A DNA stretch of 10,169 nt from an uncultured Thermoplasmata archaeon. GTDB taxonomy: Archaea; Thermoplasmatota; Thermoplasmata; Halarchaeoplasmatales; Halarchaeoplasmataceae. The DNA lies in NCBI GenBank assembly GCA_964399335.1, contig CAYNQI010000032.1, positions 1 through 10,169 of the forward strand, in the 5' to 3' direction. The translations under genes and the position numbers were made by a program. Below, in pieces: positions 1,004 through 8,538 of this stretch. Positions within the stretch are counted from its first letter, which is position 1, and each line of letters starts with the position of its first letter. The notes beneath the pieces were generated by a model. It saw nothing but the letters and a program-made list of their open reading frames with translations, was not told where the DNA came from and ran no database searches.

Positions 1004-1909
1004 ATGAAGATCGGTATTGTTGGACCAGGGTCCCTAGGTACATTTCTTGCAGGGAAGATAGGAAAAGTGAATCAAGTTGTATTATATGGTAGAAAAGACT
1101 TGTCTTTAAAACAAGTGGTAATTTCTGGAGAGACTCAACTTAAAACAGACATTAAATATACAACTGATCCCACTTCACTTTCCGATTTGGAGTATGTTAT
1201 TATCTGTACTAAATCCTTTCAAACTGAACAGGTGATGAAAGATACACATGAATATTTGAGTGACAAAACAATGATTGTTTCTCTTCAAAATGGTTTAAAG
1301 AATGAAAAAATAATTTCAAAGTTTGTGGGTAAGGATCGGGTGATTGGAGGTATCACGGAAAATGGAATTACCTTCGAAAGGTATGGCAAAGTGATTCATG
1401 CGGGTAAAGGAGAAACGATAATAGGGCCATATGGAGATGATTTTACAAACGAAGTCAAAGAATTCTCTCAAATTTTGAATGATTCGAGTATTGCCAACAA
1501 AGTATCGGATAACATATATGGGCACATATGGAAAAAGGTCATCATAAATGCAGGTATCAATCCTATCACTGCTTTAAGTGGCTTGAAAAATGGATCTATT
1601 ATTGATGACAAAAATCTATTTTCGTTGATGGAATATATATGTGAAGAATCAGTAAAAGTCGCAGAAAATGAAGTTGTTTTACCAGGGGATGATCCTTTCA
1701 AGGAGGCTGTAAAGGTTGCCAAGAACACCAGTGAGAATAAATCTAGTATGCTTCAGGATGTTGAAAATAAAAGAAAGACCGAGATAGATTGTATTAGCGG
1801 AGCGATTGTAAGTGTTGGAACTAAACATGGAGTAAATACTCCTTACAATAGGACAATGGTATATTTAATAAAAAGTTTAGAAAATTCGTATCTAAATAAT
1901 TCTGATTAG
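1004..1909 (+). CDS. panE: 2-dehydropantoate 2-reductase (ketopantoate reductase, PanE/ApbA family)
   Basis: Rossmann start MKIGIVGPGSLG and family motifs CTKS, SLQNGL, WKKVIINAGINPITAL, SSMLQD, TEIDCISGAIV. Start moved from the track's 953 to ATG 1004 because the fold begins there and the TATA spacing fits. Confidence 0.93.
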   Translation: MKIGIVGPGSLGTFLAGKIGKVNQVVLYGRKDLSLKQVVISGETQLKTDIKYTTDPTSLSDLEYVIICTKSFQTEQVMKDTHEYLSDKTMIVSLQNGLKNEKIISKFVGKDRVIGGITENGITFERYGKVIHAGKGETIIGPYGDDFTNEVKEFSQILNDSSIANKVSDNIYGHIWKKVIINAGINPITALSGLKNGSIIDDKNLFSLMEYICEESVKVAENEVVLPGDDPFKEAVKVAKNTSENKSSMLQDVENKRKTEIDCISGAIVSVGTKHGVNTPYNRTMVYLIKSLENSYLNNSD

Positions 1910-3100
1910 CTCAGCTTCTAAATAAATATCTTTAGCATTAACGATATCGACTTCAACCCTTTTGCCAATAAGAGAACAATCTTCTTCGTTTAAAACCACT
2001 ACCTTATAATTATCTGTTCTTCCCTTTAAAGAATCTCCCTTTCCTTCTTCTAAAATAGTTACTTGCATACGTCTACCTACATATCTCTTATTCCTGTCAC
2101 GACTGATTTTAAATCTCAGTTCAGTAAGTTCTTTTGAACGTTTTTTCTTTATTCTAGAATGGATCTTGTTAATTTTGTTTATAGCTTCTGTCCCAGGTCT
2201 AGGGCTGAAACGAGTTACGTTGATAATGTCCGGCTTTGCATCTCTGATAATTTCCAATGTTTTATCAAAAGCATCTTCTTCTTCTCCTGGGAAACCAGCT
2301 ATTATATCTGTTGAGAGGGTCAAATCAGGGAATTTCTGCCTGATCCCCTTTACTAATTTTATCCAGTCTTCAGGTGTATACCGTCTATTCATATCTTTTA
2401 GAACCTGTTCTGAACCAGACTGTAGAGGAATGTGAAGAAATTTGTAAATCCTTTCATGGTTCAATATATTCTTGATCTCTTCTTTGATGGGTATAGCTGT
2501 GTCTGGGTTCATCATCCCTATCCTTATTCTAAACTCTTTATCTATTTCTAGAAGTTTGTGAATCAATTCAGGAAGAGAACTGTTTATATCTTTACCATAC
2601 GAAGCCGTATCTTGACAAGTGATTTGAATCTCCCATGCTGATGATTTTACTAATTCTTCAAACCTACATTTTATATCATCAGGCTCTCGACTGTTTAGAG
2701 GACCTCTTGCAATTTTCGTGATACAATATGAACAATCACCTAGACAACCACTCGCTATTGGTAAAACGCCTACTAGACCCTTTTTTGGACAAACTGAGAG
2801 GGAGATATCGTTAGGAACTACTTTCTCAATATTATCAGAGATTACATCAAGTTCGCCATTATTTATCGAGGTTAAACAGCCAGTTACCATAACTTTAGAA
2901 CATTTTTCACTTAACTCTTTAATCCTCCTTTTCATCCTCTCCTCTGTTTTTGAGATGACAACGCAAGTTCCTATGACCGCCATATCTGCATATTCCGGAT
3001 TGTCTACCTGTACATGGCCTTGACTGTTCAAATTCTCTGCGAACATTTGGGTTTCCCCTTGATTCATTGTGCAGCCATAGGCTTCTAGATAATACTTCAT
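1892..3100 (-). CDS. mtaB: tRNA t6A37 methylthiotransferase, archaeal MtaB/MiaB-like radical SAM enzyme
   Basis: UPF0004 domain with three Cys (YGCTMN, GTCVV, VTGCL), radical SAM CxxxCxxC (GCLGDCSYC), motifs QDTASYG, RIGMMNP, HIPLQSGS, TDIIAGFPGE, RFSPRPGT, and a C-terminal TRAM domain. GCLGxCSYC and RIGMMNP match the archaeal/eukaryal MtaB clade rather than MiaB or RimO. Confidence 0.9.
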   Translation of the reverse strand: MKYYLEAYGCTMNQGETQMFAENLNSQGHVQVDNPEYADMAVIGTCVVISKTEERMKRRIKELSEKCSKVMVTGCLTSINNGELDVISDNIEKVVPNDISLSVCPKKGLVGVLPIASGCLGDCSYCITKIARGPLNSREPDDIKCRFEELVKSSAWEIQITCQDTASYGKDINSSLPELIHKLLEIDKEFRIRIGMMNPDTAIPIKEEIKNILNHERIYKFLHIPLQSGSEQVLKDMNRRYTPEDWIKLVKGIRQKFPDLTLSTDIIAGFPGEEEDAFDKTLEIIRDAKPDIINVTRFSPRPGTEAINKINKIHSRIKKKRSKELTELRFKISRDRNKRYVGRRMQVTILEEGKGDSLKGRTDNYKVVVLNEEDCSLIGKRVEVDIVNAKDIYLEAELIRII

Positions 3101-4781: not shown

Positions 4782-5078
4782 TTAGTCTTTTTTGGATTGG
4801 AGTCGATATAGTAAAAATTTTAGTGCAACTGAACTACCAGATTTTAGGAGTAGGGAATAAGCTGAATACTCTTTAATTTTTGCTTCGATGTACAGAGAAA
4901 TAGCCTTTCGAATATCTTCTATACTACTTTCATCCCCCATATCCAATTTTTTGAAGGTTTTACTTCCCAATTCTTCCTTGATTATCTCTAATATGTATCC
5001 TTTCATCATGTCATTTGTTTCAAAATAATCACTGAGTTCAACCAATCCCTTGTGTTCTTCTTCTGGTTCTTCAACCAT
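4782..5078 (-). CDS. Hypothetical protein (~98 aa, probably helical)
   Basis: ORF fills the gap between MATE and tusA and has protein-like composition. ATG 5078 (MVEEPEEE) is preferred over 5090 because a TATA box lies 24-31 nt upstream. No family recognised. Confidence 0.6.
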   Translation of the reverse strand: MVEEPEEEHKGLVELSDYFETNDMMKGYILEIIKEELGSKTFKKLDMGDESSIEDIRKAISLYIEAKIKEYSAYSLLLKSGSSVALKFLLYRLQSKKD

Positions 5079-5101
5079 GTTAAATAACATAGTGTTGAAG
5101 G

Positions 5102-5117
5102 TATAAATATATGTTTT
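5102..5117 (-). promoter_or_regulatory. Putative TATA/BRE for the leaderless orphan gene
   Basis: The minus strand reads AAAACATA-TATTTATA. The TATA element at 5102-5109 is at leaderless spacing from ATG 5078. Confidence 0.45.
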
Positions 5118-5149
5118 GAAAGCTATACCAAAACATTAATGTATTAACA

Positions 5150-5170
5150 AATCAAGTATATTATATTAAC
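5150..5170 (+). promoter_or_regulatory. Candidate TATA region for the tusA-dsrE-iscS-iscU-nitrilase operon
   Basis: AAATCAAG-TATATTATATTAAC lies upstream of an SD-led ATG at 5217. The exact box is ambiguous in AT-rich DNA. Confidence 0.3.
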
Positions 5171-5216
5171 CAAATTCAAATGAATATCAAAATTTAAAAT
5201 GTCTGGAGAGATTAAA

Positions 5217-5882: not shown

Positions 5883-7049
5883 ATGATGGAAGAAACAGTA
5901 TATCTGGATAACAGTTCAAGCACAAAGATGGATGAGAGGGTTTTAGAAGCAATGAAACCTTACTTGTTCGAGAAATATGCAGTAGCAAGTTCTGAATTCG
6001 GATATTCTCTTGGAATAAAAGCAAAAGAGGGGTTGGAAGATGCAAGAAGTACTATAGCAGATAATATTGGAGCCAACCCTGAAGAGATCATATTTACTTC
6101 TTGTGGGACAGAAGCAAGCAATCTAGCTTTGAAAGGTGTAGCTAAAAAACTATCTGAAGATAAAAATCACATAATAACTAGTAAAATAGAGGATTTTCCC
6201 GTCCTAAAAAGTGCCCAAAGATTAGAAAAAGAGGGTTACGAAATTACGTTTCTCGAAGTAGATGATGAAGGTTTTGTAGATGTGGACAAATTGGAAGAGG
6301 CTATCGATGATAAAACTGGACTGGTATCTATACAGCACGGGAACCAAGAGATCGGAACAGTTCAAGATATCGAGGAAATCAGTAAAATATGTGATCAAAA
6401 TGATGTTCTATTTCACACCGATGCAACCCATACCTTCACAAAGCTACCCATGGATGTTAGTAAAACTCCTATAGATTTGATGACATTATCAGCACACACG
6501 ATTCATGGTCCAAAAGGGATCGGAGCGCTTTATGTAAGGGATGGGACTGATCTAGAAAAATTGATGGACGGTGGTTTTCAGGAGAATAATCGTAGAGCGG
6601 GTGTCGAAAATATCCCTGGTGCCGTTGGGTTCGCAAAAGCTATTGAATTAGTGACTGAAGATGAGAATGAGAAGCTAAAAGAGATGAGAGACTCTTTAAT
6701 AAAGAAAATTCAGGACAATATTCCTGATACAACTTTAAACGGACCTGCAAAGGATAGAACACCACATAACGCAAATATCACATTCCATTACGTAGAAGGT
6801 GAATCTATAACACTCCATATGGATATGAGAGGTTTTTCCGTAAGCACCGGTTCTGCCTGTTTCAGCAAGTCTTTAGAAGCTAGTCATGTAATAATGGGGA
6901 TCGGTGGGGACCATGAAAGAGCTCACGGTTCAGTTAGATTTAGCTTTGGAAGATATAATACCATGGAAGATGTTGATAGAACCGTAGAAGCTATAAGTGA
7001 AGTTGTTAAAAGGTTAAGAGAGATAAGTCCGTTAGGAAAAGATAAATAG
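5883..7049 (+). CDS. iscS: IscS/NifS (group I cysteine desulfurase)-like protein, predicted catalytically inactive as a desulfurase
   Basis: Full-length collinearity with IscS: VYLDNS, EIIFTSCGTEASN, HIITSK, EIGTVQD, FHTDAT, GPKGIGALYVR, YVEGES, STGSAC, GSVRFSFGRY, LREISPL. The Schiff-base Lys is Thr (SAHTIHGPKG, ACG at 6498-6500). The loop Cys is retained (TGT 6858-6860). Confidence 0.9.
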   Translation: MMEETVYLDNSSSTKMDERVLEAMKPYLFEKYAVASSEFGYSLGIKAKEGLEDARSTIADNIGANPEEIIFTSCGTEASNLALKGVAKKLSEDKNHIITSKIEDFPVLKSAQRLEKEGYEITFLEVDDEGFVDVDKLEEAIDDKTGLVSIQHGNQEIGTVQDIEEISKICDQNDVLFHTDATHTFTKLPMDVSKTPIDLMTLSAHTIHGPKGIGALYVRDGTDLEKLMDGGFQENNRRAGVENIPGAVGFAKAIELVTEDENEKLKEMRDSLIKKIQDNIPDTTLNGPAKDRTPHNANITFHYVEGESITLHMDMRGFSVSTGSACFSKSLEASHVIMGIGGDHERAHGSVRFSFGRYNTMEDVDRTVEAISEVVKRLREISPLGKDK

Positions 7050-7059
7050 ATTGATGATA

Positions 7060-7065
7060 GGAGGT
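7060..7065 (+). promoter_or_regulatory. Shine-Dalgarno site for iscU
   Basis: GGAGGT, 6 nt before ATG 7072. Confidence 0.7.
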
Positions 7066-7071
7066 AAGAAT

Positions 7072-7713
7072 ATGGCAGATTTACCATATACAGAAAAAGT
7101 AATCGAATACTTCAAAAATCCTAAAAATGTTGGAAAGATAGAAGATGCAGACGGTAAGGCAAAAGAGGGGAGCCCAGCTTGCGGGGATATGGTTTCAGTC
7201 TACATAAAGGTAGATGATGAAACTAAAGAGATCACGGATATAAAGTTTGAGTCCTATGGCTGCGCTTCGAACATAGCAACCGGCTCGATAATCACGGAGA
7301 TGGCAAAAGGTAAAACAATAGATGAGGCAAAAAATATCACGTGGAATGACGCTGCTGAAGAATTAGGCGGATTACCTAAGATGAAAACACATTGCTCCGT
7401 TTTGGCCGTTGAGGGATTACAGGCAGCGATAGCTGATTACGAGGAAAAGCACGGTCTTGTGAAGGAGCAAAAACCTACTACCGAAGAGATCGTAGAAAAA
7501 AGACTCAGACATGTGATGAATCCCATGACAGGTCTAGATGTGGTCCGGACAGACCTTATCAATGATATAAACGTAAAGGATGGAGTCATCTCACTAAAAG
7601 TTGATCTTGTCGAGGATCATCAATTCGCTAACGCCATCAAAGAAGATATCATGGAGAAGTTGGAGCATCTCTGGGATATAGATGAGATCAAAATAAAGTT
7701 CGTTGAAGATTGA
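7072..7713 (+). CDS. iscU: Fe-S cluster scaffold IscU/NifU-N fused to a C-terminal degenerate DUF59 (SufT/MIP18-like) domain
   Basis: YTEKVIEYFKNPKNVG, SPACGD, SYGCASNIA and GGLPKMKTHCSVLA give three Cys (7180, 7261, 7393) plus the conserved Asp, Lys and His. The extra ~78-aa C-terminus (7477-7710) follows the DUF59 pattern (LRHVMNPMTGLDVV...INDINVKDGVISLKVDL). Confidence 0.88.
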   Translation: MADLPYTEKVIEYFKNPKNVGKIEDADGKAKEGSPACGDMVSVYIKVDDETKEITDIKFESYGCASNIATGSIITEMAKGKTIDEAKNITWNDAAEELGGLPKMKTHCSVLAVEGLQAAIADYEEKHGLVKEQKPTTEEIVEKRLRHVMNPMTGLDVVRTDLINDINVKDGVISLKVDLVEDHQFANAIKEDIMEKLEHLWDIDEIKIKFVED

Positions 7714-7728
7714 TTGGATGTGTGTGAG

Positions 7729-8538
7729 ATGAAAGTTTCTTTAGTACAAAGAAAGCATGTTTTAGGAGATAAGGAAGCGAACTTAGGTATTATCAAAGAT
7801 ACGGTTAAACAAAATGACAGTGACCTATACATATTCCCGGAACTATTTCTAACTGGTTACAGGCTAAGAGATAGATTATGGGATGAAGCTGAACACATAC
7901 CGGGTCCTTCTACGGATAAAATAGCTGAATTGGCTGAAGAAGAACAGACTTCGATCATATTTGGAATGCCGGAAAAGATAGGTAGGAGTGGGAGATTGAA
8001 AAACTCATCGGTTTTAATAAATCCAGAAGGAGATATAGAGGTATATAGAAAAACATACCTACCTAACTTTGGCCCTTTCGAAGAGATGAGATATTTTGGA
8101 CCGGATGATGAGATACCTGTCTTCGATACTCAGTTCGGTAAGTTAGGCATGGTTATATGCTACGATATTTTCTTCCCTGAACTGACCAAAGCTATGGCTT
8201 TAAAAGGAGCTGATTTTATAGTTTGTATATCTGCATCTCCATCTATAAGTAAAAAGTTCTTCGAAACTGTTTTACCAGCTAGAGCTATTGAAACTACTGC
8301 TTTCATATTCTACGCAAATCTACTAGGTAGAGAGGAAAATTTCACATTCTGGGGCGGAAACAGGTTAATATCGCCGACAGGTTTGGAAGTAGCAAAGGGA
8401 CCGATCTACGAGGAAGACGTATTGACGGTGGAAATTGACCTTGAAGATCTTGATAGAGCAAGAAAAGGAAGACCAGTGTTGAATGATACCAGAGCCGAAG
8501 TGATGTATGCTTCAGCTGACTCAATATTTATCGATTAG
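7729..8538 (+). CDS. Carbon-nitrogen hydrolase (nitrilase superfamily)
   Basis: Intact Glu-Lys-Cys triad: IFPELF, YRKTYL, ICYDIFFPE. Also KGADFI, RAIE, FWGGNRLISPTG. ATG 7729 gives the typical start MKVSLVQ. Confidence 0.9.
   Translation: MKVSLVQRKHVLGDKEANLGIIKDTVKQNDSDLYIFPELFLTGYRLRDRLWDEAEHIPGPSTDKIAELAEEEQTSIIFGMPEKIGRSGRLKNSSVLINPEGDIEVYRKTYLPNFGPFEEMRYFGPDDEIPVFDTQFGKLGMVICYDIFFPELTKAMALKGADFIVCISASPSISKKFFETVLPARAIETTAFIFYANLLGREENFTFWGGNRLISPTGLEVAKGPIYEEDVLTVEIDLEDLDRARKGRPVLNDTRAEVMYASADSIFID

Follow-up and report, generated by a model that had tools for sequence, protein, structure and literature searches.

The window analysed here, a 10,169-nucleotide (nt) stretch from an uncultured Thermoplasmata archaeon (assembly GCA_964399335.1, contig CAYNQI010000032.1), carries a homologue of the cysteine desulfurase IscS that lacks the Schiff-base lysine and much of the site for the cofactor pyridoxal 5'-phosphate (PLP). 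Its gene, at 5883-7049, stands in a cassette with genes for a TusA-like sulfur carrier, a DsrE-like protein and the scaffold protein IscU fused to a DUF59 domain (IscU::DUF59). We propose, at a probability of about 0.5, that the IscS-like protein is a PLP-free, non-desulfurating paralogue that acts as the obligatory partner of IscU::DUF59, where it would relay or ligate sulfur delivered by TusA and DsrE.

The open reading frame (ORF) translates without internal stops, and the Pfam family Aminotran_5 (PF00266) spans the product over the full model (E 9e-79). BLASTP alignment with E. coli K-12 IscS (from NC_000913), at 43% identity, sets the numbering used here. Five residues of the PLP site are replaced (H104 by D104, N155 by Q155, Q183 by H183, K206 by T206 and T243 by V241), and the GNPxS-x-H motif is gone, with FEKYAVASSEF facing the E. 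coli FGNPASRSH. Retained are D180, T76, S203, H205, C328 (C326 here, within the loop motif STGSAC) and R354 (R352 here). We take H104 of the E. coli enzyme to stack on the PLP ring and T243 to be a phosphate contact from the other subunit; of the retained residues, D180 presumably is the ligand of PLP N1, T76, S203 and H205 ligands of its phosphate, and R352 the ligand of the substrate carboxylate. The sequence-only reading of this DNA had drawn the same map by eye, with the five replacements, the lost motif and the kept C328, D180 and R354 on a full-length frame free of frameshifts, and both alignment and codons confirm it at every point. As a group-I desulfurase, the protein has the fold and the SxGSAC cysteine; it lacks the Schiff-base lysine, the contacts H104, N155, Q183 and T243, and equivalog-level scores, all NCBIfam cut-offs being missed (NifS, 463.7 versus 530.75; IscS, 402.1 versus 548). 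Translation likely starts at ATG 5883, which lies 6-7 nt 3' of a GGTG ribosome-binding site and is preferable to GTG 5874.

The remodelling is a fixed property of a clade. Among 200 members (the 120 closest homologues in the database plus 80 loci from genomes), compared with 115 canonical relatives, the remodelled residues are conserved at 97-100% (Table 1), while the commonest residue at a position has, averaged along the protein, a frequency of 0.78; Asp180 and Arg352 are each invariant (200/200). The positions that define the clade against the canonical set are A33 (an insertion), V34, A35 (E. coli N35), S79, D104, F105, Q151, Q155, H183, T206, K226, A247, E261, H302, T310, F327, G339 and G342. 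Four of the five replacements first noticed are on this list; the fifth position, 241, is hydrophobic yet variable. F327, beside the loop cysteine, occurs in 100% of the clade and 0% of the canonical relatives. Purifying selection on the gene is strong, with a dN/dS of 0.06-0.11 in pairwise comparisons with three congeners whose proteins are 91-94% identical, and codon 206 differs among these genomes only at its third base (ACG in the window; ACT, ACT and ACA in the congeners). A sequencing error at codon 206 can be excluded without recourse to reads, because the congeners use these other threonine codons and Thr stands in 195 of the 200 members. The suggestion that neither error nor simple decay explains the changes is thereby borne out. 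The escape left open for the lysine of the GPKG motif (K211), as a substitute Schiff base, is closed: we rejected it because the position alternates between Lys (110/200) and Arg (89/200), so that this residue is unable to replace K206. Judged by its sequence, the IscS-like protein is a genuine pseudo-desulfurase, widespread and under selection, and not a product of decay.

The type has been noticed before. Deere et al. 2020 (PMC7585200) described Methanosarcina acetivorans IscS1 (MA0808), with the motif STGSACFS and without the PLP-binding residues and the lysine, next to a 24-kDa IscU1 (MA0807), a "DrsE superfamily" protein (MA0809) and a "SirA-like" protein (MA0810); recombinant IscS1 expressed alone went to inclusion bodies, was insoluble and was not studied further. 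By sequence, the window protein belongs to this IscS1/MisS1 clade. Methanosarcina sp. orthologues, used as stand-ins for the M. acetivorans proteins, are 67-69% identical and keep the same gene order. Clustering at 50% identity reduced the clade to one full-length representative and one fragment, with the next relatives at most 50% identical and a clade support of 99-100%. The window shares with M. acetivorans isc1 the STGSACFS loop, the missing lysine and PLP contacts, the DsrE-like and TusA-like neighbours, and an IscU with an extra domain (NifU_N plus DUF59 here). It differs in its host, a Thermoplasmata metagenome-assembled genome (MAG) with its closest records in sediments of soda lakes and hypersaline sites, and in having a CN-hydrolase gene where M. 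acetivorans has the HIT-family neighbour MA0811. Thus the HT/ED group suspected to be new is the MA0808 type already noted as lacking PLP residues; what we add is the sole-scaffold inventory, the specificity positions, the exclusion of the GPKG lysine, the contexts of sister lineages and an approximately unbiased (AU) test of tree topology. Our full-text literature searches found no characterisation of the clade beyond Deere et al. 2020.

The predicted fold is intact, with a flexible cysteine loop. An AlphaFold2 model built from 149 diverse sequences has a mean predicted local distance difference test score (pLDDT) of 95.3 and a predicted template modelling score (pTM) of 0.93; the sole stretch below 50, residues 326-329, matches the persulfide loop that is mobile in canonical enzymes. 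By Foldseek, human NFS1 and the IscS proteins of E. coli and A. fulgidus superpose on the model with template modelling (TM) scores of 0.93-0.96 and root-mean-square deviations of 1.3-1.5 A. A shallow run on 25 clade members reached a pLDDT of only 69, with low confidence at 1-45, 206-211, 228-242 and 315-351. We considered and rejected a disordered pocket on that basis; the deeper alignment restores confidence to 95.3, so the effect is one of alignment depth.

Linkage of the four genes is very tight. We scanned one genome per species with two clade-specific peptides and found 557 relatives; all locus counts below refer to the best 80 of the 557, in which the IscS-like protein is 65-94% identical to that of the window. 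The order TusA, DsrE, IscS-like, IscU::DUF59 is held in about 73 of the 80 loci, in archaea and bacteria that are anaerobes, and tusA lies 5' of the IscS-like gene in about 75. In the window the four genes are co-directional and overlapping or abutting, the dsrE start overlapping the tusA stop by 4 nt. The cysteines that would carry sulfur are conserved in 75 orthologues each of TusA (C19, 97%) and DsrE (C100, 99%); against NCBIfam DsrE2 the DsrE-like protein scores 66 bits, the cut-off being 210. IscU::DUF59, whose true start is likely ATG 7072, is 49% identical to E. coli IscU and keeps the equivalents of C37, D39, C63, H105 and C106; the cysteine ligands C44, C71 and C115 are conserved at about 100% among orthologues.

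Archaeal hosts are Thermoplasmata, Hadarchaeota, Methanofastidiosa, Methanosarcinaceae, Methanomassiliicoccales, Methanobacteriaceae and contigs labelled Aenigmatarchaeota; bacterial hosts are Syntrophales, Dehalococcoidia, Anaerolineae, Clostridia, Halanaerobiales and Atribacteria. The contigs labelled as bacterial (L016, L021, L026, L036-L038, L043, L055, L070, L077, L085 and L087) encode proteins 65-70% identical to that of the window; on L026 the IscS-like gene stands without the other three cassette genes, and the other bacteria-labelled loci hold the rest of the cassette. The presence of the cassette on such contigs implies either inter-domain transfer or mis-binning. Clustering of all ORFs within 5 kb in the 80 loci gave no fifth partner in more than 13 loci. 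One minus-strand family, present in 41 loci at a median of -765 from the IscS-like gene, was set aside as a putative shadow ORF antisense to tusA/dsrE.

A minimal iron-sulfur system (MIS), as quoted in the literature, consists of MisS and MisU, an IscS-like/IscU-like pair without genes for chaperones, an A-type carrier or a ferredoxin. The cassette resembles it in that only TusA, DsrE, the IscS-like protein and IscU::DUF59 recur and no chaperone, A-type carrier or ferredoxin genes are among the recurrent neighbours. It appears to depart from a MIS in the desulfurase: an active MisS would need a PLP site, and that is absent here. For how anaerobes that have only such minimal IscS-IscU systems obtain the sulfur and iron of their clusters, the clade suggests a concrete hypothesis, namely an IscS devoid of PLP packaged with two persulfide carriers and IscU::DUF59, nearly unchanged between archaea and bacteria.

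Table 1. Features of the window; for the diagnostic codons of the IscS-like gene, frequencies are those of 200 clade members and 115 canonical relatives
Feature	Coordinates	Strand	Details
MiaB-like methylthiotransferase	1892..3100	-	UPF0004 + radical SAM + TRAM
102-aa ORF	4782..5090	-	divergent from tusA
Intergenic region	5091..5198		very AT-rich, TATA-like runs
TusA-like sulfur carrier, 83 aa, CPxP cysteine C19	5199..5450	+	Pfam TusA E 2e-18
DsrE-like protein, 141 aa, conserved C100	5447..5872	+	Pfam DrsE_2 E 8e-37
Lysine-less IscS homologue (IscS1/MA0808 type), P0001	5883..7049	+	388 aa
Codon D104 (E. coli H104)	6192..6194	+	GAT; Asp 199/200 clade members, His 115/115 canonical relatives
Codon Q155 (E. 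coli N155)	6345..6347	+	CAA; Gln 200/200 clade members
Codon H183 (E. coli Q183)	6429..6431	+	CAT; His 199/200 clade members
Codon T206 (E. coli K206, Schiff-base lysine)	6498..6500	+	ACG; Thr 195/200 clade members
Codon V241 (E. coli T243)	6603..6605	+	GTC; Val/Leu/Ile 197/200 clade, Thr 115/115 canonical
Codon C326 (E. coli C328, persulfide-loop Cys)	6858..6860	+	TGT; Cys 200/200; then clade-specific F327
IscU fused to DUF59 (FeS_assembly_P)	7051..7713	+	Pfam NifU_N E 2e-45, FeS_assembly_P E 2e-10
CN-hydrolase (nitrilase/amidase-like)	7714..8538	+	begins at the IscU::DUF59 stop

Genome inventories bear on whether the cassette is needed. In the window's assembly (1.57 Mb, 80% complete) the one NifU_N domain is that of the cassette's IscU, and a SufB/D core was not found. 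The same holds for better genomes: in two congeners (G001, 93% complete; G003, 95%) and four further members of the family (G005, G019, G020 and G023; 92-96%) a single NifU_N lies directly 3' of a lysine-less IscS, and SufB/D was not found in any of these six, which for MAGs means "not found" and is no proof of absence. SufB/D was likewise not found in the five genomes of the window's own genus (G000-G004, two of them 93-95% complete) nor in the majority of the family. Short SmsB-like genes of 306-322 aa do turn up in a few members, and because the search returned these matches it was sensitive enough. With no SufB/D and no other IscU found in the six near-complete family genomes, the cassette is probably essential there and not redundant, which argues that the "dead" IscS supports housekeeping iron-sulfur (Fe-S) assembly. 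In this family the cassette is apparently the sole scaffold system and, from the gene content, looks like the housekeeping route; M. acetivorans, by contrast, possesses three sets of iscSU and two of sufCB.

The window's genome also encodes, on another contig, a SufS-like desulfurase of the canonical group II that retains its PLP lysine (G000:C93; L001:1471-2619, minus strand; motifs SVHKMLGP and RGGMHC). Its gene adjoins thyX and part of a formate-tetrahydrofolate ligase gene, SufE, SufU and SufBC are all missing from the neighbourhood, and an orthologue is found in all four congeners. In 20 cassette genomes of other lineages, SufB or SmsB is present in 15 and further strong class-V enzymes in 17; the three with only a lysine-less class-V enzyme are two Methanofastidiosa-like MAGs and one Syntrophaceae MAG. 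Outside the window's family, then, the cassette is usually one among several systems. We considered "cysteine-independent" as a firm label for the cassette and rejected it, given the SufS-like desulfurase in the window's genome and its congeners and the class-V enzymes in 17 of the 20 others.

From the observed sequence features, conservation, selection, gene linkage and genome inventories, we infer every transfer step of the following scheme. The IscS-like protein is predicted to retain a type-I fold, an architecture of the dimer type and mobility of the Cys326 loop. Sulfane sulfur would ride as persulfide on TusA (C19) and the DsrE-like protein (C100) and move from them to Cys326, which would then hand sulfur to, or co-ligate, the nascent [2Fe-2S] cluster on IscU, as in A. 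fulgidus IscS. The ultimate source could be environmental sulfide or polysulfide, or cysteine by way of the unlinked SufS-like desulfurase. Like canonical group-I desulfurases (E. coli IscS, NFS1, NifS), the protein has the fold, the flexible cysteine loop, and IscU and TusA-family partners; unlike in E. coli IscS, PLP chemistry would be gone. The presumed flow, from TusA/DsrE to the IscS-like protein, is opposite to that of the E. coli relay, in which IscS passes sulfur to TusA (PDB 3LVJ). The scaffolding or sulfur-relay role offered by the sequence-only reading fits the constant company of IscU, TusA and DsrE.

Several points weigh against this scheme. The basic patch on which TusA, CyaY and IscX dock in E. 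coli IscS is unconserved; its RRKPRVR region reads RDGTDLE in the window protein, so homology does not warrant the assumption that TusA docks here. Complementation of E. coli by archaeal iscSU pairs was unsuccessful. In other lineages the cassette is often accessory, accompanied by canonical desulfurases and by SufB/SmsB at the frequencies given above. The near-invariance of the replaced pocket residues hints at a pocket that does more than stay empty. Recombinant IscS1, moreover, was insoluble when made alone.

The strongest competitor, which we consider unlikely although a serious contender, would give the protein an A. fulgidus-like role only: it would stabilise IscU and lend Cys326 as the fourth cluster ligand, sulfur would arrive as free sulfide, and TusA and DsrE would serve some other acceptor or protect and buffer sulfur. 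Its precedent is the set of A. fulgidus IscS-IscU structures. A. fulgidus IscS lacks desulfurase activity and supplies a cysteine ligand to the IscU-bound cluster (PDB 4EB5, 4EB7, 4HVK; D199K variant, 4R5F), and this pair is the sole biochemically studied precedent of an inactive IscS ligating a cluster on IscU. The hosts of the cassette are anaerobes of sulfidic habitats, the unconserved TusA-binding patch would be expected, and two sister lineages (P0182 and P0126) pair a lysine-less IscS with IscU in the absence of TusA and DsrE. Set against this are the linkage to TusA and DsrE, kept across domains in abutting or overlapping genes, and the pocket itself: R352 and the phosphate-site residues are invariant in the clade and not in the A. 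fulgidus type. Both proteins have a group-I fold without the Schiff-base lysine, a retained cysteine loop and an adjacent IscU. A. fulgidus IscS2, unlike the window protein, has K206 replaced by D, H205 by N, Q183 by A and R354 by L, and keeps GNPSS-H, H104 and N155; the window protein keeps H205 and R354 and has lost GNPxS-H. This bears out the view that remodelling went further in the window protein than in the A. fulgidus type. A. fulgidus IscU, moreover, is described as single-domain, unlike IscU::DUF59.

Whether the two types lost the lysine separately was addressed with trees. FastTree and a quick IQ-TREE search both place the window clade (support 99-100) inside a group of other lysine-less IscS proteins (95-98) and the A. 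fulgidus type elsewhere. A tree constrained to join all lysine-less types is not rejected by the AU test (p-AU 0.79), its likelihood lying 29.8 units above that of the quick free search. We consequently withdrew the independent origin that FastTree had drawn: the free trees do part the window clade from the A. fulgidus type, but independence is not established, because the one-clade tree is not rejected. For the representative P0134, the best relative of solved structure is 4EB5, and the motif SSNDIYGPKG is common to both. Gene order in the sister lineages is IscS-like, IscU::DUF59, TusA in P0127; IscS-like, IscU::DUF59 in P0182; and IscS-like, a creatininase-family gene, IscU in P0126; the full TusA/DsrE pair is absent from all three. 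Since a lysine-less IscS is paired with IscU in every sister lineage examined, the pairing may be older than the fixed D/Q/H/T set.

A second competitor, rather unlikely in our view, holds that D104, Q155, D180, H183, H205 and T206, with R352, form a new site for a metal, such as Fe2+, in which case the protein would donate iron, or for a non-covalent cofactor or substrate, so that the protein would be a catalyst of another kind. The pattern in the old PLP pocket exceeds what simple loss requires and suggests a new role for it: four of the replacement residues reach 97-100% conservation where the average position reaches 78%, sister lysine-less lineages carry assorted residues at the same positions, and D180, T76, S203, H205 and R352 are all retained. 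The Asp/His-rich set could coordinate a metal. The pocket nonetheless matches no known motif, the change of T243 to Val, Leu or Ile drops one phosphate contact, and there is no lysine with which an aldimine could form, position 211 being either Lys or Arg. A repurposed PLP pocket, if the near-invariant replacements do signal one, would be of interest for the evolution of pseudoenzymes. More speculative still is a combined form, in which the cassette would be a self-contained Fe-S route without PLP chemistry of its own, the sole such route in some Thermoplasmata, with the invariant pocket rebuilt as an iron-binding or persulfide-handling site and the IscS-like protein acting as a repurposed catalyst or iron donor.

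We think it improbable that the cassette serves tRNA or cofactor thiolation, or selenium trafficking, in place of general Fe-S assembly. TusA and DsrE relatives supply tRNA thiolation and dissimilatory sulfur pathways, which speaks for such a role, as does the NCBIfam family that the TusA-like protein matches best: YedF (sulfurtransferase-like, of selenium metabolism), with 40 bits where the cut-off is 79 and slightly ahead of TusA, both matches being below cut-off. The P0182 pair, moreover, is divergent to a gene (L091:2028-3902, minus strand) for a 624-aa protein with PAPS_reduct and PUA domains and a weak TGT_C2 match, a neighbour that suggests a link to a thiolation-type ATP-pyrophosphatase. 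Opposed to this are a complete IscU with all cluster ligands and an Fe-S assembly domain in nearly every locus, and the finding that the six near-complete genomes yielded no Fe-S scaffold other than the cassette's IscU. Finally, the idea that the gene is a pseudogene in decay, or that codon 206 was mis-sequenced or misassembled, has the missing lysine in its favour and nothing else, and the low dN/dS, the synonymous threonine codons, the conservation of Thr206 and the full-length frame refute it for all practical purposes.

Around the cassette, the CN-hydrolase gene is conserved no further than the three closest relatives, at 75-93% identity, and lies outside the widespread cassette. The divergent 102-aa ORF has no Pfam or NCBIfam match and is conserved, at 54-87%, in the same three relatives only; the AT-rich intergenic stretch separates it from tusA. 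The MiaB-like methylthiotransferase, an Fe-S client whose gene near the cassette accords with the proposed relay, is syntenic in close relatives (L008-L010).

Among proteins of solved structure, the best sequence relatives are 9WEP, 9WER, 9WEW, 9WF8, 9WFB, 9WFE and 9WFY, variants of one 406-aa lysine-containing desulfurase; the series scores slightly above A. fulgidus IscS2. Isolated lysine-less IscS homologues also occur inside canonical clades (P0174, P0206, P0188, P0233 and P0265, with the lysine changed to M, T, Q or G), P0174 being close to E. coli IscS itself, and lysine loss seems to recur in the IscS family.

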